A DNA stretch of 64,000 nucleotides from Gemmatimonadota bacterium. Its GTDB lineage: Bacteria > Gemmatimonadota > Gemmatimonadetes > Gemmatimonadales > Gemmatimonadaceae. The stretch lies in contig JBKOYV010000160.1 in assembly GCA_046725585.1 (NCBI GenBank), positions 2,742-66,741 of the forward strand, given 5' to 3'. Below are positions 4,230 through 62,578 of the stretch, piece by piece (position 1 is the stretch's first letter; each line of letters starts with the position of its first letter). The notes below the pieces were generated by a model. It saw only the letters and a list, made by a program, of their open reading frames with translations. It had not been told where the DNA came from and did no database searches. The translations under genes were made by a program, and so were the position numbers.

Positions 4230-6650
4230 ATGCTCCGGTACGCGCTCCGAACACTCGCCAAGAATCCGGCGTGGACGCTCGCCGCCGTTGCGTGTCTCGC
4301 GATCGGCATTGGCGCAAACACGACCGTGTACACGGCCATGCGGGCGATTGCGATCGAGCCGGTCCCCACGCCCAACAGCGACCGGCTCGTCATGATGTCG
4401 GAGGTGAAGCCACGGGATCCGGACGACCCCGATTTCGATCAGCTCGCGCCGGCCAATCTCGTCGATTGGATGCAGCAGACGCGCACGCTCGAGCATATTG
4501 CGGCGTTCTCGTGGTGGGACGTCAACATCACGGGCATCAACGACCCCGAGCGCGTCACGGGGTTTCGCGTGACGCCCGAGTTCTTCCGCACGCTCGACGA
4601 GCGTCCCGTGCTCGGGCGTGCGTTCACGGAGGAGGAAGGACACACCGGCAACACCGATCGCGTCATTCTCAGTCATCCGCTGTGGATGCGGCGGTTCGGC
4701 GGTGATCCTGGCGTGGTTGGTCGGACGGTGCAGCTCAACGGAGCGCCGCACACGATCGTCGGTGTAATGGGCGAGGACTTCATCTTCCCGCCGGGCGCCG
4801 AGCTGTGGAAGGCGTTCGCGCTCGAAGGTGCGGTTGCGGCCGACCGCGACGGACGCTGGTTGAACGCGATCGCGCGGTTGCGGCCCACGGCGACGCTCAC
4901 CGAGGCCCGCGCGGAGGCCCGCGCCATCGCTCGGCGGCTCGAGCTGCAGTATCCCGACATGAACGCGAAGTGGGGAATGAAGGTCGAGCCCGCACAGGTG
5001 TTCTACGGACGCCATCCGCGGCCGTACATGGTCGTGATGCTGGCGTCGGTGGCGCTGGTGCTGCTCATCGGGTGCGCGAACGTGGCGAACCTGCTGCTGG
5101 CACGCGCCACCACACGCGGGCGGGAGCTCGCCGTGCGGGTCGCGTTAGGCGCACGGCGCAGCGATCTCGTCCGGCAGATGCTCGCCGAGAGCATGGTGAT
5201 CGCGCTCATTGGCGGCGCGCTCGGCGCGTTGCTCGCGCTCTGGGGCGTGAGGCTCATGCGAAACACGCTGCCAGCGGACCTGGTGCGCTTCAACCCGGGG
5301 TGGACGCGCATAACGATCAACGGCCACGCGCTTCTGTTCACCATGGCCGTGTCGATCGCTACCGCGGTGGTGGTGGGTCTCGTTCCGGCGCTCATTGCGT
5401 CTCGCGCCGATCCGCAGCAGGCGCTGAAGGAAAGTGGGCGGACCGCGAGCGGCGCCGCCGGGCGTTACCGGCTCCGGAGCGCGCTGGTGGTTGGTGAGGT
5501 CGCGCTCGCGCTGATGCTGCTGTTCGGTACCGGCCTCATGGTGCGGAGCTTCATCGGGCTGATCGAAACGGACCAGGGGTACACCGTGGAGAAGGCGCTC
5601 ACCATGCAGCTCACGCTGCCGAGCGCGCGGTACAAGACCGACGGTGACCGCACGAGGTTCTATACGGCCCTCATCGATCGCGTGCGTGAGCTGCCGGGGG
5701 TTCGCGCGGCCAGCCTGATCAACGAGCTCCCGCCCTCATGGAATGACGTCTCTACACGCTTCATCCTGGAGGGCGAGCCAAAGCCACAACGTGGCGATCC
5801 GGCGCATCAGGAGCGCCAGCACCTGGTCTGGGATGGGTACTTCGCGGCCATGGACATTCCCGTTAGGCGCGGCCGGGACTTCGATCGCCATGATGACACG
5901 ACGAGTCCATCGGTGGCGATCGTCAGCGAGGCGTTCGCCCGGAAGTACTGGCCAGGTCAGGACGCGATCGGCAAGCGAATCTCGGGGCTCGCGGACTCGA
6001 TGCACCTGACGACGGTGGTTGGTGTCGTCGGGGATGTGCGGCACAACCCGAACACCGGACGGGCGCTGCTCGCCCCGGTGGTCTACTACCCGGCGACCCA
6101 GGGTCCGTGGGACACCATGACGCTCCTCGTGCGGACAGCCGGGAGCCCTCTCTCGATCACCGCGGATGTGCAGCGAGCGATTGGGTCGCTCGACCAGACG
6201 CTCGCTCCGGGCGAGGTCAAGACCCTCGAGCGGATGCTGTCGTCGTCGCTGTCGCCGCAGCGCATCACGGCCGGGATGCTGAGCGTGTTCGCGGGCATCG
6301 CGCTGCTGCTGGCGGTGATCGGCATCTACGGCGTCATGTCGTACACCGTAAACCAGCGCACGCACGAGATCGGAATCCGCATGGCGCTGGGCGCGCAGCG
6401 CGCGGACGTGGTGAGGCGTGTCCTGCGTCAGGGCGTGGCGTTGGCCGCGTTAGGTATCACGATCGGGGCGTTCGGGTCGTTCGCAATGACGCGAGGAATG
6501 GCGACCCTGCTTCACGAGGTGAGTCCAACGGATCCGCTCACGTTCGTGGCGGTGGCGGCGATGCTGGCGGCGGTGGCACTGCTGGGGAGCTGGCTCCCGG
6601 CGCAGCGCGCGGCGGCAGTCGATCCGGTTGTGGCGTTGAGGGACTCGTGA
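4230..6650 (+). CDS. ADOP-family (MacB-like periplasmic core + duplicated FtsX) permease
   Basis: ORF 4185..6650 trimmed to MLRYALRTLAKNP.. because the upstream 15 codons only translate the heptad array. Two FtsX modules (..GCANVANLLLARA.., ..RTHEIGIRMALGA..) and C-terminal ..PAQRAAAVDPVVALR. Confidence 0.85.
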   Translation: MLRYALRTLAKNPAWTLAAVACLAIGIGANTTVYTAMRAIAIEPVPTPNSDRLVMMSEVKPRDPDDPDFDQLAPANLVDWMQQTRTLEHIAAFSWWDVNITGINDPERVTGFRVTPEFFRTLDERPVLGRAFTEEEGHTGNTDRVILSHPLWMRRFGGDPGVVGRTVQLNGAPHTIVGVMGEDFIFPPGAELWKAFALEGAVAADRDGRWLNAIARLRPTATLTEARAEARAIARRLELQYPDMNAKWGMKVEPAQVFYGRHPRPYMVVMLASVALVLLIGCANVANLLLARATTRGRELAVRVALGARRSDLVRQMLAESMVIALIGGALGALLALWGVRLMRNTLPADLVRFNPGWTRITINGHALLFTMAVSIATAVVVGLVPALIASRADPQQALKESGRTASGAAGRYRLRSALVVGEVALALMLLFGTGLMVRSFIGLIETDQGYTVEKALTMQLTLPSARYKTDGDRTRFYTALIDRVRELPGVRAASLINELPPSWNDVSTRFILEGEPKPQRGDPAHQERQHLVWDGYFAAMDIPVRRGRDFDRHDDTTSPSVAIVSEAFARKYWPGQDAIGKRISGLADSMHLTTVVGVVGDVRHNPNTGRALLAPVVYYPATQGPWDTMTLLVRTAGSPLSITADVQRAIGSLDQTLAPGEVKTLERMLSSSLSPQRITAGMLSVFAGIALLLAVIGIYGVMSYTVNQRTHEIGIRMALGAQRADVVRRVLRQGVALAALGITIGAFGSFAMTRGMATLLHEVSPTDPLTFVAVAAMLAAVALLGSWLPAQRAAAVDPVVALRDS

Positions 6651-16221: not shown

Positions 16222-16333
16222 GTCATTTCGAGCGTAGCTATGTCAGCCCGAGCGAAGCGAGGGATCTTCAGGTTCCCGACAGAGGGCCTCGATCGGGACG
16301 ATGAGGATCCCTCGCCTGACGGCTCGGGATGAC
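16222..16333. repeat. GTCATCC..GGATGAC hairpin repeat (MITE/REP-like), copy a
   Basis: GTCATTTCGAGCG..GAGCGAAGCGAGGGATC..GGATCCCTCGCCTGACGGCTCGGGATGAC. Family members are at 20708, 25293, 27426, 33791 and 62461. Confidence 0.8.
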
Positions 16334-16400: not shown

Positions 16401-18752
16401 ATGTTTTCGACGACGTTTTTGCTGCTCCAGATGGCCGCCGCGCAGGGCGCTGCACTACCGGCCCAATCATACGACGGCACGGGCCGTCCCGCTGTTCGCA
16501 TTCCGAGAATCGCCAGTCCCGCCGTCACGGTCGATGGGTCGTTGAGTGAGCCCGCCTGGGCGCAAGCGGCGCGACTGACAGGGTTCCATCAATACCAACC
16601 CGTCGACGGCCGCCCCGCCGAGGAGCGCACCGAGGCGCGCGTCCTTTATTCGCCAGATGCGATTTATTTCGGGGTCATCGCCAGCGCGAAGAACCCGGCG
16701 TCCATCCGTGCCACGGTCGCCGATCGCGACAACCTCGGCAACGAAGACCGGATCACGATCTACCTCGACACGTTCAACGATCATCGCCGAGCGTTCTTCT
16801 TCGTTGTGAACCCGTTAGGCTCGCAGGGGGACGGCATGCGCACGGAGGGCGCGGCGAGCGCAGGCAACATCTTCGGCGGGAACATCGACTGGAACCCTGA
16901 TTTCCGCTTCGAGTCCAAGGGGCAGCTCACCGACAGCGGGTACGTCGTCGAGCTCCGCATTCCGTTCAAGAGCCTGCGCTTTCCGTCGAGCGATCCGCAG
17001 ACGTGGGGCATCAACGTCGTGCGGAACGTGCAGGCGACGGGCTTCGAGGACACGTGGACCGACGCGCGAAGGGCGACGGCGAGCTTCCTGAGCGAGGCGG
17101 GTTCGCTGACGGGCATCGGGAACATCGAGCGCGGCATCACGACCGAGGTGCAGCCGTTCGTGACGGCGCAGTTGACTGGCACGCGGACGCCGACGGGTGG
17201 CTTCGATCACGACGACGTGAACCCCGACGCGGGCGTCAACCTCAAGGTCGCGTTCCCGTCGGTGACACTCGACGCGACGGTGAAGCCCGACTTCTCGCAG
17301 GTGGAGTCGGACGCCGGGCTCGTGACGGTGAACGAGCGGTTCGCGCTCTTTTTCGCGGAGAAGCGGCCGTTCTTCCTCGAGGGGATCGAGCTGTTCAACA
17401 CGCCGAACCAGCTCGTCTACACGCGGCAGATCGCATCGCCAGTCGCGGGGGCGAAGGTGACGGGGAAGCTCGGCCCGATCAGCATCGCCTATCTCTCCGC
17501 GCTCAATGACACGCCGTGTCCGACGGTCATCGGCGACGCTCCCGACTTCGAGCCGACTTGCGACAAGGCGCTGTTCAACGTCGCGCGGCTGCGTCGCGAC
17601 TTCGGCGGAAACTCGACGATCGCGCTCACGATGACCGACCGTCGGGCGGGCGACACGACCAATACGGTGATCGCGAGCGACCTGCGCTATGTGTTCGGCC
17701 GCATGTACTACTTCGAGGCGCAGGCCGGCGGCTCGTACACGAAGGATCCGCTGCGGTTAGGCGCGTCGGACGCGAAGACGTCGCCGGTGTGGAAGACGGA
17801 GCTCGATCGCACCGGACGTCTCTGGGGATTCAACTATCTCTTCAGCGGCCTGGGCGAGGACTTCATCAGCCGTGCCGGGTTCGTGCCACGCACTGGGATC
17901 GTCACGTTCCACGGCTTCAACCGATTCTCGTATTACGGCAAGCCAGGTGCGCGGCTCGAGAACATCACGTTCTTCTTCGGACCGACACGCATCTGGCAGT
18001 ACGACAACTTCTCGTTGCCCGACGCGTACGAGGGCCAGGAATCGGGCAACGCGATGTTCCGGCTGCGCGGCGGGTGGAACGCCTCGCTCAACGGCTCGCG
18101 CAACTTCTTCACCTTCGACGAAGGGTCGTACAACGGGCTATACGTCGGCGGGCCGGGCGGGCTCCAGCCGTACGTCCCGCCGGACGATCAGCTCTCCGGC
18201 CTGATGAACGTGTCGATGACGGTGACGACGCCGACGTTCCGCCGGTTCAACGCTTTGGTGAGCGTTGCGCGCAACGAGGTTGCGATCTTCGCGGAGGGGT
18301 CCGAGGGGCGTGAGCTGAGGACGACGGGAAGCCTAACGATGCGCCCGACGAAGAGTGTGCGCAGCGAGGCGAGCTTACAACTGTCGCAGATCGACCGCGC
18401 CTTCGACGGGTCGGAGTATGCGCGGACGGTGATCCCACGGCTCAAGGTCGAATACCAGCCCACGCGCGCGCTGTTCTTTCGCGTCGTGAGTCAGTACCAG
18501 GCGCAGCGAACGAGCGGGCTCCGAACGCCGACGGGCGAGCAGATCTTTCGCCAGGATGGGTCGCCCGTTTCGGGCGGTGATTTCGGAACGTTGCAGACGG
18601 ACTGGCTAGTGTCGTACGAGCCGACCCCCGGGACCGTGGCGTTCTTCGGGTACGGCGACACGCGGGACGCACTGGACTCATCGAAGCTCTCCGATCTCGA
18701 GCGAAGGCGCGACGGGTTCTTCGTGAAGATCGCGTATCAGTGGAGGCGGTGA
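16401..18752 (+). CDS. DUF5916-type secreted protein with CBM9-like N-terminal domain
   Basis: 783 aa with a signal peptide. ..VDGSLSEPAWAQAARLTGFHQYQPVDGRPAEERTEARVLYSPDAIYFG.. is the characteristic N-terminal module, followed by a long beta-rich C-terminus. Confidence 0.7.
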   Translation: MFSTTFLLLQMAAAQGAALPAQSYDGTGRPAVRIPRIASPAVTVDGSLSEPAWAQAARLTGFHQYQPVDGRPAEERTEARVLYSPDAIYFGVIASAKNPASIRATVADRDNLGNEDRITIYLDTFNDHRRAFFFVVNPLGSQGDGMRTEGAASAGNIFGGNIDWNPDFRFESKGQLTDSGYVVELRIPFKSLRFPSSDPQTWGINVVRNVQATGFEDTWTDARRATASFLSEAGSLTGIGNIERGITTEVQPFVTAQLTGTRTPTGGFDHDDVNPDAGVNLKVAFPSVTLDATVKPDFSQVESDAGLVTVNERFALFFAEKRPFFLEGIELFNTPNQLVYTRQIASPVAGAKVTGKLGPISIAYLSALNDTPCPTVIGDAPDFEPTCDKALFNVARLRRDFGGNSTIALTMTDRRAGDTTNTVIASDLRYVFGRMYYFEAQAGGSYTKDPLRLGASDAKTSPVWKTELDRTGRLWGFNYLFSGLGEDFISRAGFVPRTGIVTFHGFNRFSYYGKPGARLENITFFFGPTRIWQYDNFSLPDAYEGQESGNAMFRLRGGWNASLNGSRNFFTFDEGSYNGLYVGGPGGLQPYVPPDDQLSGLMNVSMTVTTPTFRRFNALVSVARNEVAIFAEGSEGRELRTTGSLTMRPTKSVRSEASLQLSQIDRAFDGSEYARTVIPRLKVEYQPTRALFFRVVSQYQAQRTSGLRTPTGEQIFRQDGSPVSGGDFGTLQTDWLVSYEPTPGTVAFFGYGDTRDALDSSKLSDLERRRDGFFVKIAYQWRR

Positions 18753-19024
18753 GCCGCGGCCGCCACGCATGCCGCGGGCGGCTGCTGTACGGCCGCCGGA
18801 GACGCGGGCGCCGACGCGCGGCCTAACGCTGCTCCGCCCAGCGCTCCGAGCCCCACGTAGGCCAGGTCGATCACGAAGGCCAGACGGAAGGAGAACTGCG
18901 TCAGCTCTCCTCCCAGTTGGCGGCGCCCCGTGAGCCGGACGCCGCCAGCGGCACGCGGCGTGTGAACGATCGGGGCGACAAGGCGGCGAGCACGAACGGC
19001 GAGCTCAATGAAGCGGCCAGGCAT
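18737..19024 (-). CDS. hypothetical small protein (weak call)
   Basis: 95 aa from ATG 19024, with moderate GC3 and no recognisable motif. It lies directly downstream of 17-mer box A. Confidence 0.25.
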   Translation of the reverse strand: MPGRFIELAVRARRLVAPIVHTPRAAGGVRLTGRRQLGGELTQFSFRLAFVIDLAYVGLGALGGAALGRASAPASPAAVQQPPAACVAAAAHRLH

Positions 19025-19063: not shown

Positions 19064-19093
19064 CCTCTGTCTCGAATGACACCGGAGTGTTAC
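19064..19093 (-). promoter_or_regulatory. conserved box A: GTAACACTCCGGTGTCA-N6-ACAGAGG (minus-strand reading)
   Basis: The perfect 17-mer TGACACCGGAGTGTTAC (19077..19093) is repeated at 20828..20844. It contains the imperfect palindrome TAACAC-TCCG-GTGTCA and has a nearby shared CCTCTGT. Confidence 0.55.
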
Positions 19094-19121: not shown

Positions 19122-19865
19122 TCAATGCACCCGCTGTTCTCCGTGCGTACACCAGCGCAGCAGCACCGTACCTAACACGAGTGACGGGTCGCGCGGGATC
19201 ACGATCGGCGGGTAGTCCGGGTTGAGCGATGCGAGCTCCACGCGCGAGCCCGCGACACCGCCCACGCGCTTCACCACGTAGCCACCGTCGGGCACGCGGG
19301 CCACCACCACCGAATCTGGCACGATCTCGTCGCTCAGCTTCACGAGGATCGTGTCGCCGTCGTGCAGCAGCGGGATCATGCTGTCGCCCGTCACGCGTAG
19401 CGCGACGTACTTCCCATCCGGCGCGCTCTCCGGGAGCGGGATCCACCGGTCGCAGGGCTCATCCCAGAGCTCGCGCCCCACGCCGGCCGCGACCGACAGC
19501 GCCATGGCCGGCGCGTGCCGAACGCGAGCAGCCGCGGCCACCACCTGGGCGAGCGTCCCCTCCTCCCAGGCGGGGGCCATCTCCGGCTCAGCCGCCACCT
19601 CTCGCACCCGCGAGCGCTCCGCTGCGCGCCGGGCGACCACGTCGCGCACGAAACGATCGGCGGTGGCCTCGAGCCGCTGCCGCTCCGCGAGCGACAGCGT
19701 CGCTCTCGCCTCGCGCGCGTACCACTCGATGAACCCCGTCTCGGTCGGATCGAGTGGATCGAGCCGCCGCATCGCGCGGTCGCCGGCGATGCGCACGAGC
19801 AGATCCTTCGTTCGCTCCAGTCCCGCGCGCTCTCCGGCGCTCAGGGATTCGTCGTCGTATCTCAC
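19122..19865 (-). CDS. S24 (LexA/UmuD-type) self-cleaving peptidase without a recognisable N-terminal HTH
   Basis: The C-terminus has a VAAG cleavage-site-like motif (..ALSVAAGVGRE..), the Ser motif ..RVTGDSMIPLL.. and the Lys motif ..YVVKRV... The 120-aa N-terminus is helical with no wHTH pattern. The start overlaps the sigma stop (ATGA). Confidence 0.8.
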   Translation of the reverse strand: MRYDDESLSAGERAGLERTKDLLVRIAGDRAMRRLDPLDPTETGFIEWYAREARATLSLAERQRLEATADRFVRDVVARRAAERSRVREVAAEPEMAPAWEEGTLAQVVAAAARVRHAPAMALSVAAGVGRELWDEPCDRWIPLPESAPDGKYVALRVTGDSMIPLLHDGDTILVKLSDEIVPDSVVVARVPDGGYVVKRVGGVAGSRVELASLNPDYPPIVIPRDPSLVLGTVLLRWCTHGEQRVH

Positions 19866-20674
19866 TGGTCCTCCCCTTCATTTCGTTCGTTTCGTTCATT
19901 CCGTGACGCGCGGCCCGCACCGCGCCGGTTCCGTTCCGGTTCCAGGGCGTCCCGCGAGCCCTCGACGGCTCTGCGTGCGCGCTCCGACAGACCGCTCCGG
20001 CGAAAGAACTCGTACAGCTCCTGGCGCTCGCCGGGACGCCACGGGCCCGAGTCGCGGAGCGCGACCTCGATGAGTCGCTCGCGAAGGCGCAGTACGCGCA
20101 CCCGCGCCGCGTTATGCGTGATACCCAGCCACTCGCCGATGAGGCGCTGCGGGATGGACGCGCTCACCCAGCGGAGGATCTGACGTTCCTCGTCGGTGAT
20201 GCCTGCTTCGATCACGCGCGAGAGTCGCTCGAGCACCGGTGAGAGCGGCGGCGCCTCGGCTGCCGGCCCGGCACTCGCGCGGATCGAGGCCTCGGAGACC
20301 ACCTCGCGCACGACGCGCTCGCCGTCGCCGAGCGACGCCGCGGCGGTTCCGGTGGCGGCGCGGCGCTTCGTCGCGCGGCGGTCGTTCGCGAGCCGATGCC
20401 GGAACATCGCGATGAGGTAGCCCGTGAGGTTCGCCGGAAAGGCGACCGCTGGTTGCATGAGATGAATGGCGGCATCGCTCAGGCAGTCCGTGACGACGTC
20501 GTCACGGAGCGCGATCTGCACGTGGGCCTGCCGAGCGAGCTTGTAGAGCGCAGGACTGAAACGCCGGTAGAACTCGCGAATGGCGAGCGCCTCGTCGTGT
20601 CGCATCCGGTGCAGCAACTCCTGATCGCTCCACGACTCGGCGCTCGCCTCATCCGCTCGTCTCTCGATTCGCAT
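19862..20674 (-). CDS. ECF-like sigma-70-family RNA polymerase sigma factor
   Basis: Region 2-like ..ALAIREFYRRFSPALYKLARQ..DCLSDAAIHL.. and region 4 HTH ..ITDEERQILRWVSASIPQRLIGEWLGITHNAARVRVLRLRERL... The C-terminal tail carries (NER)n from a 9-nt repeat. Confidence 0.75.
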   Translation of the reverse strand: MRIERRADEASAESWSDQELLHRMRHDEALAIREFYRRFSPALYKLARQAHVQIALRDDVVTDCLSDAAIHLMQPAVAFPANLTGYLIAMFRHRLANDRRATKRRAATGTAAASLGDGERVVREVVSEASIRASAGPAAEAPPLSPVLERLSRVIEAGITDEERQILRWVSASIPQRLIGEWLGITHNAARVRVLRLRERLIEVALRDSGPWRPGERQELYEFFRRSGLSERARRAVEGSRDALEPERNRRGAGRASRNERNERNEGEDQ

Positions 20675-20707: not shown

Positions 20708-20801
20708 GTCATCCTGAGGCGTCCGGCCGAAGGATTCTCATTGTCCCGGCAGAGAGCCCTCGCTCGGGACGACGAACATCCTTCGCTTTGCTCAGGATGA
20801 C
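20708..20801. repeat. GTCATCC..GGATGAC hairpin repeat, copy b
   Basis: GTCATCCTGAGGCGTCCGGCCGAAGGATTCTCAT...CATCCTTCGCTTTGCTCAGGATGAC. Confidence 0.8.
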
Positions 20802-20816: not shown

Positions 20817-20844
20817 CCTCTGTTAACTGACACCGGAGTGTTAC
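20817..20844 (-). promoter_or_regulatory. conserved box B: GTAACACTCCGGTGTCA-N4-ACAGAGG (minus-strand reading)
   Basis: Second perfect copy of the 17-mer (20828..20844), located upstream of the sigma gene. It overlaps the TAA stop of the 20841..21530 gene. Confidence 0.55.
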
Positions 20845-21530
20845 AGCCTGAGACGCAGGGCATGACGCGACGCGGTCCACGAGCGGAGCATGCGTTCAAC
20901 CCGGTGAACAGTCGCCTCGCTCACCGTTGGCCGCATGAGCGTTTCACGCAGTCGGCGCGCAGGACACGGGGTCAGGCCGGCGCGCTGCGCCACCGCGAGC
21001 AGGTCGAGCGCATCCATCAAGCGGTCGGCGTTGCGCTGGAGGGCGATACTCCCTGGCGGGGGAGACGTTAGGCGACGAGGTGACGCCTCCGCCACGCGCA
21101 GGGGGCGCTCGCGATTCGCTTTGAGCATCTCCTCGCGACTCGGCCGCTGCATCGACGCCGTGAGGCCGAGGTTCGCGAGCGCTCGGCCGATGGCCGAGGT
21201 CTCGGTGTTCTCGAGGCAGGCGACGGTGTTGACGTCGCCGTCGCCGATGCGCTCGGATGCGAGGCCCGTTGCCGACGGGCGCTGCTCGTCGACGGACCGA
21301 AACACGAACGCCTGCACCGTGATGTCGTGCTCGGTCCGCGAGATGAGCCGGGTGATGATGCGACCGGTCGGGAAGCGTGCGTAGAACAGGATGATCCGAT
21401 CCGCGACCGGCGCGTACTCCCCGACATCGAACAGCAGCTCGTGTTTCGGCACTGGTCCTCCCGTCGCTGGCGCCGGCGCGACCGGCGACGGCGGGAGGCA
21501 TACAATAAGCCGAACAAACACCGAAAACAA
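20841..21530 (-). CDS. hypothetical protein with a phage-protein-like core
   Basis: 229 aa. The core ..YAPVADRIILFYARFPTGRIITRLI..VQAFVF..ATGLASE..NTVACLENTETSAIGRALANLG.. resembles a module I associate with phage/prophage (possibly ssDNA-annealing) proteins. Family not verified and start uncertain. Confidence 0.5.
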   Translation of the reverse strand: MFSVFVRLIVCLPPSPVAPAPATGGPVPKHELLFDVGEYAPVADRIILFYARFPTGRIITRLISRTEHDITVQAFVFRSVDEQRPSATGLASERIGDGDVNTVACLENTETSAIGRALANLGLTASMQRPSREEMLKANRERPLRVAEASPRRLTSPPPGSIALQRNADRLMDALDLLAVAQRAGLTPCPARRLRETLMRPTVSEATVHRVERMLRSWTASRHALRLRL

Positions 21531-21560
21531 GACCCGCGCACGGGTCAGTCGCGGGAGTGC

Positions 21561-25292: not shown

Positions 25293-25457
25293 GTCATCCC
25301 GGGCAGATTTTGTCATGCCGAGCCGCCATCCCTATACCGCCCGCTTCGCGGGCCCCCGCGCTCGGGATGACAAGCGAGGGATGACACCATCCGGGCCGGG
25401 ACGATGAAGATCCTTCGCTGCGCTCAGGATGACAACCTCCCGGATCCTTGTCATCAC
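25293..25457. repeat. GTCATCC..GGATGAC hairpin repeat, composite copy c
   Basis: GTCATCCCGGG..GTCATGCCGAGCC..GCTCGGGATGAC..GGGATGAC..GCGCTCAGGATGAC..GGATCCTTGTCATCAC, i.e. several half-sites. Confidence 0.7.
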
Positions 25458-27316: not shown

Positions 27317-27620
27317 GCTGGCTGCCTGCTGCGTGCAGCTGCTGGCTGGTAGCCGACGGCCGGCGCGCTACTGCCGCGGGCTTCGAGCTGCTGCCAATAC
27401 CCCAACGAGCCCGGTCAGGACGCCAGTCATCCCGAGCCGTCAGGCGAGGGATCCTCATCGTCCCGACGGAGAGCCCTCGATCGTGAGCCTGAGGATCCCT
27501 CGCTTCGCTCGGGATGACACGACGGCTCGAGATGACACGCGGCTCGTTGCGCTAATAGCAGCAGCTCGCAGCACGCGGCAGCAGCGCGAAGCCGTCGGCT
27601 ACCAGCGGGCAGCTGGCAGC
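27317..27620. repeat. about 300-bp nested palindrome: GCTGCC-rich arms flanking hairpin repeat copy d (27426..27536)
   Basis: The left arm 27317..27411 is approximately the reverse complement of the right arm 27541..27620 (..CTGGTAGCCGACGGC..GCTGCTGCC..AACGAGCC). The core is GTCATCCCGAGCC..GGATCC...GGATCCCTCGCTTCGCTCGGGATGAC. Confidence 0.8.
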
Positions 27621-33790: not shown

Positions 33791-33883
33791 GTCATCCTGA
33801 GGCGTCAGCCGAAGGATCCTCATCGTCCCGGCAGGCTCTCTGCCAGGAACCCGAAGATCCCTCGCCTGACGGCTCGGGATGAC
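33791..33883. repeat. GTCATCC..GGATGAC hairpin repeat, copy e
   Basis: GTCATCCTGAGGCGTCAGCCGAAGGATCCTCATCGTCCCGG...GATCCCTCGCCTGACGGCTCGGGATGAC. Confidence 0.8.
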
Positions 33884-57844: not shown

Positions 57845-59034
57845 CGGGCTCGTCGCCGAAGGCGCTGCCGACCCCCGCTGAGCTCGAGCGGCAGCTCGCG
57901 CACTTCGTCAACGTCACGCTGCTGGGCGGAGGCAACGCGGTCGGGCGCGACACGCGCCTGTTCGAGGATGGGTACATGAACTCGCTCCGCATCCTCGATC
58001 TGATCGCGATGGTGGAGAAAACGTTAGGCGCGCGCATACCCGACCGCTCGGTTCGCCTCGCGAACTTCCGTACGATCGCCACCATCGTGCAGGTGTTTCA
58101 CCCGGACGCCGGCGTTGTCGCCGCCTCGGCCCCCGATCGGCTGTTCGAGCGCCGCGCTGACCGATCACGCTTTGCCTCGCCAGTCGAACTGCTTCGACAC
58201 CGGGGTGACGTCAGAGTCACCGGTGCCGGTCGCGTCGCCCTGGCTGGCCTCGCGCTCCAGGTCCTCGAGGCGGTCGATGACACCGTCGTGCGTTGGGCGG
58301 AATCCCTCGGCGCTTCCGATCACCGCTACCCGAGCCTGATCGACACGGCCATCCTCCGGCGTGCCGGGCAGACGCCATCCACGATGGTCATCCCGAGCGC
58401 GGATGTCATCCCGAGCGCTGATGACGAGGTTATGCTCGCCCCCGCCGTCTGCTACCACGCCTATCCCGAGTGGGCCGGCAAGGCCATCGGAGACACCCCC
58501 ACGGTCCTCACCGCGCGCGGCCACTGTTACCGCTACGAGGGCGGCCACCACGTCCCGCTGGAACGGCTGTGGGAGTTCACGATGCGCGAGATCATCGTGA
58601 TGGGAACACGCCAGCAGGTCGAAGACGTCCGGCAGTCACTCGTCAGGCAGGTCGCGACTCTCGTCGACACGCTGAAGCTGGACGCCTCGATCGAAACCGC
58701 CACCGACCCGTTCTTCACGGCCGGTGATGAGGGCCGCCGCCTCATGCAGCAGGCCGGCGCGCTCAAGTACGAGCTCCGCCTCGCCGTCGACGCGACGGGC
58801 CGCACGATAGCCGCCGCGTCGTTCAACCATCACCACGACTTCTTCGGCACGCGCTTCGGCATTCGCCTCGCCGACGACACCCCCGCGCACAGCGGATGCG
58901 TCGCGTTCGGGCTCGAGCGGTGGATGCTTGCGCTGCTCGCGCAGCACGGTGTTGAGCGAGACGCGTGGCCTAACGCGGTGCGAGCGTGGCTCGATGAGGC
59001 GCTCCACCGACCGGCTTGGGGATCCGGTGCGTGA
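57841..59034 (+). CDS. carrier-protein domain fused to a class-II aaRS-like (SerRS-type) amino acid:[carrier protein] ligase
   Basis: N-terminal PP-binding-like ..FEDGYMNSLRILDLIAMVEKTLG... C-terminal motif-2-like ..GHCYRYEGGHHVPLERLWEFTMREIIVMG.., motif-3-like ..HSGCVAFGLERWMLALL.. and Cys residues (..APAVCYHAY..) as in Zn-dependent atypical SerRS homologues. No tRNA-binding arm. ATGA overlap with the SDR. Confidence 0.7.
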   Translation: MTGSSPKALPTPAELERQLAHFVNVTLLGGGNAVGRDTRLFEDGYMNSLRILDLIAMVEKTLGARIPDRSVRLANFRTIATIVQVFHPDAGVVAASAPDRLFERRADRSRFASPVELLRHRGDVRVTGAGRVALAGLALQVLEAVDDTVVRWAESLGASDHRYPSLIDTAILRRAGQTPSTMVIPSADVIPSADDEVMLAPAVCYHAYPEWAGKAIGDTPTVLTARGHCYRYEGGHHVPLERLWEFTMREIIVMGTRQQVEDVRQSLVRQVATLVDTLKLDASIETATDPFFTAGDEGRRLMQQAGALKYELRLAVDATGRTIAAASFNHHHDFFGTRFGIRLADDTPAHSGCVAFGLERWMLALLAQHGVERDAWPNAVRAWLDEALHRPAWGSGA

Positions 59035-62373: not shown

Positions 62374-62578
62374 GGGAGACGGGAAGCGGGAGGCGGGAGG
62401 CGGGAAGCGAAGGCGGGAACCGCGAACGGGGAACCGGGAGCCGTGCTGCTCTACCGGGAACCTGAGGATCCTTCGCTTCGCTCAGGATGACTAAGCCTGT
62501 CATTCCGAGCGCAGCGAGGAATCCTCATTCTCCTGGTAGAGGGCTCCTGTTCCCGGTTCCCCGTTCCCGGTTCCCGCC
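62374..62578. repeat. about 200-bp nested palindrome: GGGAAGC/GGGAACC heptad arms around two back-to-back hairpin-repeat half-sites (copy f, 62461..62528)
   Basis: The left arm GGGAGAC GGGAAGC GGGAGGC GGGAGGC GGGAAGC ..GGCGGGAACCGCGAACGGGGAACCGGGAG pairs with the right arm CTCCTGTTCCCGGTTCCCCGTTCCCGGTTCCCGCC. The core is ..GAGGATCCTTCGCTTCGCTCAGGATGAC-TAAGCCT-GTCATTCCGAGCGCAGCGAGGAATCCTC... Confidence 0.8.

Follow-up and report, generated by a model that had tools for sequence, protein, structure and literature searches.

A LexA-type autopeptidase encoded behind a divergent ECF-like sigma factor in Gemmatimonadaceae as a possible self-cleaving anti-sigma factor

UmuD is a precedent for an S24 protein that has no DNA-binding domain and regulates a partner protein, and in the classic lexA arrangement autoregulation is combined with a neighboring division inhibitor such as yneA or sidA. 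To our knowledge, what drives sigma/anti-sigma switching has so far been a separate protease, a redox change or an exchange of partners. An autoproteolytic anti-sigma factor, RsgI, has been described (PMC10328401), LexA control of the sigma factor SigN with positive feedback has been documented (10.1101/624585), and LexA proteins with non-canonical DNA-binding domains are documented in Bacteroidetes (PMC8565304). Here, a locus was analyzed within a stretch of 64,000 nucleotides (the window) from a Gemmatimonadota bacterium of the Gemmatimonadaceae (GenBank assembly GCA_046725585.1, contig JBKOYV010000160.1, positions 2,742 to 66,741), in which a gene for a LexA/UmuD-type (S24) autopeptidase overlaps the end of a gene for a divergent extracytoplasmic function (ECF)-like sigma factor. 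The S24 protein was tentatively read as a LexA-type, self-cleaving, soluble anti-sigma factor, and a rough probability of 0.45 was assigned to this reading; the design would be a new combination of known parts, and the case for its central claim is still circumstantial. Full-text literature searches found no S24-type anti-sigma factor, in agreement with a preliminary description of this DNA, made from the letters alone, whose author knew of no characterized example.

Both open reading frames (ORFs) were present on the minus strand where the preliminary description had placed them. The pair and its predicted functional parts are as follows.

19862..20674, minus strand: divergent ECF-like sigma factor, 270 aa (profile matches), with a sigma2-like region at residues ~20-105, a sigma4 helix-turn-helix (HTH) at ~157-205 and a conserved C-terminal extension of ~65 aa
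19122..19865, minus strand: S24 (LexA/UmuD-type) autopeptidase, 247 aa (ORF, Pfam, alignment and model)
19506-19865, minus strand: helical N-domain of the S24 protein, residues 1 to ~120 (model)
19482-19493, minus strand: cleavage site VAAG, residues 125-128, with the Ala127-Gly128 bond as the predicted point of cleavage
19380-19382, minus strand: nucleophile Ser162 in GDSM
19269-19271, minus strand: general base Lys199 in VVKRV

The S24 gene starts with GTG behind a GGAGGA Shine-Dalgarno sequence. Its product was matched by Pfam Peptidase_S24 (PF00717) over residues 124-233 (76.6 bits against a cutoff of 23.3, E = 1.6e-21), and VAAG, Ser162 and Lys199 were invariant in 38/38 family members of the alignment, which bears out the earlier claim that the full LexA/UmuD self-cleavage hallmarks are present. 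In a BLASTP comparison with E. coli LexA (with a LexA sequence entered by hand) Ser162 fell on S119 and Lys199 on K156, and the spacing from the scissile Gly to the Ser was 34 residues in the two proteins alike. The AlphaFold model (predicted local distance difference test, pLDDT, 84) was matched by Foldseek to the C-domains of LexA and lambda CI with the cleavage-site region included (E = 6e-8 to 1e-5, ~130 aligned columns), a search of the whole model that was dominated by the C-domain and is uninformative on the N-domain. The LexA equivalog TIGR00498 reached 36.5 bits against a cutoff of 110.95 and covered the C-domain only, so that the protein is not LexA proper. Judged from sequence and model, it is a true LexA-type autopeptidase with no recognizable DNA-binding domain.

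The S24 domain also carries residues that are family-invariant and absent from LexA (His168, Trp238, Cys239 and His241, mostly also Cys138), among them a C-terminal RWCxH motif; together they may provide the protease domain with a metal or redox site. One family member, P0094 (400 aa), was considered as a natural fusion of sigma factor and S24 protein and rejected, as its single N-domain is followed by two tandem copies of the whole unit of cleavage site and S24 domain.

The N-domain was modeled by AlphaFold as three long helices (residues 10-34, 40-55 and 59-84; 25, 16 and 26 residues), with neither an HTH nor a winged helix nor a ribbon-helix-helix in the model. Sequence and profile searches with residues 1-120 gave no Pfam, NCBIfam or PDB relative, and HTH families matched 0/17 N-domains at E ≤ 1; by contrast, Sigma70_r4 and generic HTH models matched several members of the sigma family at E ≤ 0.1. 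The helical N-terminus of ~120 aa that lacks a winged helix, as first described, is thus supported by model and family searches. When 1.84 billion representative proteins were searched exhaustively with phmmer, the N-domain was found in just 24 clusters, all of the same family, and 9/10 of the longer matches scanned (241-441 aa) carried the S24 domain. Conserved positions were mainly acidic, aromatic or proline (D21, D36, P37, P40, W48 and F72, plus an AREAR motif), and the isoelectric point (pI) was 8.2, near neutral. Taken together, sequence and model portray the N-domain as a family-specific helical module confined to the S24 protease, with no sign of DNA binding or of a known anti-sigma domain.

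The 270-aa ORF was accepted, on profile evidence, as a divergent two-domain ECF-like sigma factor. A 22-sequence profile of its family matched the solved RNA polymerase sigma factor 5uxx through both the sigma2 and the sigma4 regions (E = 2.3e-7) and, more weakly, the ECF factors SigL, SigE and SigH, and the phage sigma factor family phrog_1740 matched the protein at E = 3.4e-9. Sigma70_r2 was matched by 6/22 family members and Sigma70_r4_2 by 5/22; the window ORF itself had no Pfam match and scored 40.4 bits with TIGR02937, just below the cutoff of 42.9. The label 'ECF-like sigma' given in the preliminary description is kept with reservation, the resemblance being weaker than it implied. The linker is long (~50 residues) with an invariant Ser127-Glu128 in the family alignment, and linker and C-terminal extension are atypical for ECF (group 4) sigma-70 factors. 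Only 93 homologues were found. Within residues 120-140, the stretch ...RASAGP... is largely conserved and looks like the Ala-Gly site of LexA-type proteins.

Locus conservation was counted only where the upstream sequence was long enough, which for the sigma-S24 pair in metagenome loci meant at least 700 nt upstream. The matches in one-genome-per-species GTDB contigs all belonged to Gemmatimonadaceae or close kin (23/23). A sigma-like gene stood directly 5' of the S24 gene on the same strand at 22/22 genome or long-contig loci, and the two genes were adjacent at 52/52 metagenome loci, so the conservation as neighbors on which the preliminary description had staked its proposal was found. Adjacency persisted down to ~42% S24 identity, and the pair was kept despite wholly different outer flanks (for example, one subclade has NadA/NadC genes there and a second has an RHS protein). 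A single copy of the module was found per locus, and the chromosomal flanks were stable among close relatives. Divergence between subclades was of similar degree for the sigma factor (~33-39%) and the S24 N-domain (~31-36%), and the annealing-like protein encoded upstream was better kept (~46-50%). Exact-sequence look-ups of the window's own proteins returned no record.

Stop and start codons of the sigma and S24 genes overlapped by 4 nt (GTGA or ATGA) in most loci and by 14 nt in one subclade. The overlap in the window is GTGA, a GTG start on a TGA stop; the ATGA originally reported for it does occur in relatives. With the overlap kept across subclades, the earlier suggestion that the S24 gene is translationally coupled to the sigma-like gene is upheld, and the 4- and 14-nt overlaps together with the adjacency correspond to the usual sigma/anti-sigma gene layout, the S24 gene occupying, as had been pointed out, the usual position of the anti-sigma gene. 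The locus is best read as a regulatory module peculiar to the Gemmatimonadaceae lineage, with the gene order annealing-protein-like gene, cis element, sigma, S24, to which two subclades add another copy of the element and the gene of a small membrane protein. The third conserved gene, the two-position cis element and the downstream small hydrophobic ORF had gone unmentioned in the preliminary description. The two copies of the element in the window are located as follows.

20828..20844, minus strand: cis element copy 1, GTAACACTCCGGTGTCA, overlapping the TAA stop of the upstream gene, 153 nt before the sigma ATG
19077..19093, minus strand: cis element copy 2, GTAACACTCCGGTGTCA, 28 nt past the S24 stop and 52 nt before the small ORF

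The 17-mer GTAACACTCCGGTGTCA was present in 2 copies in the 64-kb window against 0.08 expected by chance, and no further site was found in the window at up to 3 mismatches. The position of copy 1 was kept in 19/25 genome-derived sequences scanned, as was that of copy 2 (19/25), which overlaps the S24 stop codon in the L008-L021 subclade. The pattern GTAAC-N6-GG(T/G)GT(CA/GC) gave 40 sites in 21 loci of two subclades, all of them in gene orientation and at one of the two positions. The spacer is freely variable in all six bases, the element is no palindrome, and the sequences upstream of copy 1 and copy 2 share nothing. Other subclades have variants of the element before the sigma gene (GTAAC-N6-GCGTTA and GTGACACCCCGG), and their operon is ended by a terminator-like hairpin after the S24 gene, with no small ORF that carries the element. 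Strict orientation, asymmetry and position favor a promoter, as far as sequence can tell; the single orientation, the asymmetry and the place before the sigma gene resemble ECF autoregulation, and the element would then be a sigma-dependent promoter. Neither Rfam nor a sigma70-type promoter search gave a match in the region. An RNA hairpin was rejected as an explanation of the element (the ACAC/GUGU pairing of the window is not kept in other loci), as was a sigma54 -24/-12 promoter (GG/GC dinucleotides and spacing misfit). At L015, L017 and L021 (~5162-5195) the sigma GTG lies 20 nt after the stop of the upstream gene with no evident Shine-Dalgarno sequence, which suggests leaderless translation or coupling.

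The gene upstream of copy 1 and the signals before it are listed here.

20841..21452, minus strand: upstream gene, 203 aa, GTG start at 21452, PF27148 (Slr1353_N)
21457..21498, minus strand: 5' leader hairpin in which CCUCCCG pairs with the CGGGAGG Shine-Dalgarno sequence of the upstream gene (RNAfold, -30 kcal/mol)
21499..21530, minus strand: candidate housekeeping-type promoter of the upstream gene, TTGTTT-N17-TATTGT, in a block conserved in 6 loci of the window's clade
21531-21546: terminator-like hairpin before the candidate promoter

The call of a 229-aa ORF for this gene is probably too long; P0214 is 100% identical to the 203-aa window protein and carries PF27148, a very large family. 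The protein was also matched by phrog_11717 (phage members, function unknown; E = 7.8e-25). Its homologues in phages are surrounded by early genes; one is close to SSB, and another, in a different phage, is close to an O-protein-like gene and a replicative helicase. The model (pLDDT 73) consists of an N-domain arranged alpha-beta-beta-beta-alpha and a C-domain made of helices. A Foldseek search of BFVD returned uncharacterized phage proteins first (1.8e-12), followed by ERF (2.2e-5), SAK3 (3.2e-4), Rad52/59/22 (2.6e-3) and RecT, and the fold search of PDB gave nothing significant (best hit dsRBD-like, E > 0.05). With moderate confidence, the modeled structure likely represents a single-strand-annealing or single-stranded DNA-binding fold. 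The gene was present at 20/22 genome or long-contig loci (absent from L022 and L027) and at 33/34 metagenome loci. In the variant module of L027 (5243-7828) a gene for an HhH-GPD DNA glycosylase takes its place before the sigma-S24 pair, and the sigma reading frame is split there, by a real frameshift or an assembly error. The TTGTTT-N17-TATTGT block would serve as promoter of the upstream gene; from the sequence, this gene appears to be transcribed from signals of its own in the clade of the window. The arms of the leader hairpin were kept in L001-L003 and L024, and the predicted pairing suggests translational control of the annealing-like gene.

Downstream of copy 2, one further reading frame was recognized.

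18737..19024, minus strand: small ORF, 95 aa, ATG at 19024, GAGG Shine-Dalgarno sequence, conserved with synonymous change

It has one hydrophobic membrane-like segment, AFVIDLAYVGLGALGGAAL (Kyte-Doolittle 19-residue maximum 1.76), and it was conserved with its N- and C-terminal motifs and synonymous change in L001-L006 and L024; a distant subclade has a different small hydrophobic ORF after copy 2. No family match was found in the family and profile libraries or PADLOC scanned. The 3' end of the small ORF overlaps that of a convergent DUF5916/CBM9 gene (16401..18752) by 16 nt (18737-18752), so that transcripts of the small ORF, when induced, would extend into that gene in antisense.

In the proposed mechanism, the three-helix N-domain of the S24 protein would hold the co-translated sigma factor, and the C-domain would act as a LexA-type Ser/Lys autopeptidase. 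Upon DNA damage, single-stranded DNA presented by RecA or by the adjacent annealing-like protein would trigger the S24 protein to cut itself at Ala127|Gly128, and the freed N-fragment, ending in ...VAA, would be degraded. A C-terminal VAA marks the LexA N-fragment and RseA(1-108) for ClpXP; a cut at VAA|G that leaves ...VAA would explain how cleavage frees the sigma factor. Once released, the sigma factor would boost transcription of the operon that encodes it and, in loci that have one, of the small membrane-protein gene, whose product could inhibit division or act as a toxin. Sigma binding by the N-domain, the trigger and the degradation of the fragment are the steps that we infer. The module has several links to DNA metabolism (the ERF/SAK3/Rad52-like fold upstream, phage homologues near replication genes and HhH-GPD in the variant locus), and the annealing-like neighbor, apparently transcribed independently, is attractive as an alternative or additional sensor. 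The outputs of the element that were seen are local, namely its own operon and, in two subclades, the small membrane protein, which recalls the SOS-induced division inhibitors that are encoded beside lexA.

Several observations weigh against a self-cleaving anti-sigma factor. The N-domain profile had no match to a known anti-sigma domain (zf-HC2/ZAS, RskA and others; PDB and Pfam), a weak negative because anti-sigma domains diverge greatly in sequence. The sigma factor has a conserved C-terminal extension of its own, and in other ECF groups such an extension takes the place of the anti-sigma factor. ECF autoregulatory promoters have a -35 'AAC' and a -10 'CGT' 16-17 nt apart; the element misfits this geometry, with GTAAC invariant, the second block 6 nt on and 8 nt between AAC and GTC, and the element alignment had no conservation 16-17 nt downstream. 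At L017 and L021 the sole usable sigma start codon (GTG) lies 7 nt past the element (L015 has the same sequence); the sigma transcript would then either lack a leader and start from an unusually compact promoter, or arise by read-through out of the upstream gene. With just two copies of the element in 64 kb, no DNA-repair regulon was seen.

In view of the misfit to a canonical ECF promoter, the main rival reading, considered rather unlikely, makes the S24 protein a repressor in the manner of LexA, whose helical N-domain would be a DNA-binding domain of novel type that sits on the GTAAC-N6-GGTGT element before its own operon and the small membrane-protein gene; self-cleavage upon damage would derepress both, and the sigma factor would merely be a damage-induced product, as in the control of SigN by LexA. 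This rival accounts for the same element standing before the operon of the regulator and the adjacent small membrane-protein gene, the element fits no ECF promoter spacing, its blocks are ~10.5 bp apart centre to centre and so on one helix face, and the Bacteroidetes LexA and SigN supply precedents. Against this, the modeled N-domain (helices of 25, 16 and 26 residues) has no HTH, winged helix or ribbon-helix-helix and matched no DNA-binding family, its invariant residues are acidic, aromatic or proline and its pI near neutral, and the element is asymmetric and strictly oriented, whereas palindromes or direct repeats are the usual targets of LexA-family dimers; nor does this reading explain why the stop/start overlap with the sigma gene is universal. 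Distinctly unlikely is a RecA/LexA-independent SOS-like circuit in which the annealing-like protein would coat single-stranded DNA and act as co-protease for the self-cleaving anti-sigma factor, and the freed sigma factor, with its unusual linker and C-extension, would read a compact promoter (GTAAC at about -24, GGTGTCA at about -12) giving leaderless transcripts in some species and an output that includes a division-halting small membrane protein.

That three genes and not two are conserved together would also suit an S24 protein that acts with or on other proteins of the module instead of sequestering the sigma factor, either as a UmuD-like cleaved form that modulates the annealing-like protein or as a protease that cuts the sigma linker at the Ala-Gly of ...SAGP... 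and so activates or inactivates the sigma factor. The UmuD precedent counts for such a role, as does the linker itself, with its invariant Ser127-Glu128 and largely conserved, LexA-site-like SAG|P. It was nevertheless held to be very unlikely: the Ala-Gly of the linker is lost in the most distant sigma homologues (RG, HG or RQ), the invariant VAAG of the S24 protein points to self-cleavage, and L022 and L027 keep the sigma-S24 pair in the absence of the annealing-like gene. An equally low probability was given to a stand-alone toxin switch that is set off by stress or phage and belongs to the abortive-infection or cryptic-prophage type; it would sense foreign or damaged DNA, release the sigma factor and let the small membrane protein stop or kill the cell. 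The only element targets found are indeed local (own operon and small hydrophobic ORF), the upstream protein family is common in phages, and ECF sigma/anti-sigma control of defense islands is documented (PMC11506125), whereas PADLOC gave no matches, no relative was found on IMG/VR viral contigs, each locus holds one module copy within flanks conserved among close relatives, and in other subclades a terminator-like hairpin closes the operon and no small ORF bears the element.

One additional feature touches the leader of the sigma gene in the window.

20708-20801 and ~20 others (e.g. 16222-16333, 25293-25433, 27426-27536, 33791-33883, 58387-58416 and 62480-62510): sites of a dispersed repeat

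The repeat is palindromic (GTCATCCYGAGC ... GCTCRGGATGAC), had 22 matches in the window against ~2 expected and looks like a repetitive extragenic palindrome (REP) or a miniature inverted-repeat transposable element (MITE). In the window genome an inverted pair of the repeat has been inserted into the sigma leader, which forms a long hairpin when folded. The sigma leaders of L002 and L003 are short and free of the repeat, and in L004-L006 its position is taken by a related GTCATTCCGAGCG element.

If the S24 protein is a self-cleaving anti-sigma factor, the module would join LexA-type autoproteolysis, so far that of repressors and UmuD, with sigma/anti-sigma partner switching, and it would be a damage switch that activates transcription by release of an activator and not by removal of a repressor. 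It would also provide a first handle on DNA-damage signaling in Gemmatimonadota, a major and little-studied soil phylum, and synthetic circuits could draw on it as a compact protease-gated sigma module. Two further questions arise from the conserved element and the annealing-like partner, those of promoter recognition with unusual geometry and of co-proteases besides RecA.

Compared with LexA, lambda CI and UmuD, the S24 protein is alike in catalytic domain, fold, Ala-Gly site, Ser and Lys, the 34-residue Gly-to-Ser spacing and a predicted ...VAA C-terminus of the N-fragment; it is unlike them in that a family-specific three-helix domain replaces the winged helix/HTH and its gene is coupled to a sigma gene, and no operator action was seen. 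RseA-sigmaE and RsgI share with the locus a sigma gene followed by an overlapping partner, a helical N-domain of ~85 residues with a C-terminal sensor domain, proteolytic release (proposed here) and possible autoregulation. The S24 partner differs from theirs in being soluble and, as proposed, cut by its own cytoplasmic S24 domain, it has no similarity to known anti-sigma domains, and the element lacks ECF -35/-10 spacing. In the SigN system of the B. subtilis plasmid pBS32 (10.1101/624585), as proposed here, damage leads through S24 self-cleavage to sigma activity, with positive feedback and a possibly harmful output; there LexA is a DNA-bound repressor of the sigma gene, whereas here the S24 protein has no DNA-binding domain and is co-translated with the sigma factor. 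The Bacteroidetes LexA (PMC8565304) and Acinetobacter UmuDAb are likewise S24 regulators with an N-terminus that departs from standard LexA, but they keep DNA-binding domains and bind palindromic boxes. Although CapK/CapS (PMC13373217), DriD and CapH/CapP belong to other protein families and involve neither a sigma factor nor an S24 domain, these single-stranded DNA-activated, RecA-independent sensors resemble the Gemmatimonadaceae module in that a possible direct sensor of single-stranded DNA is encoded beside the regulator.

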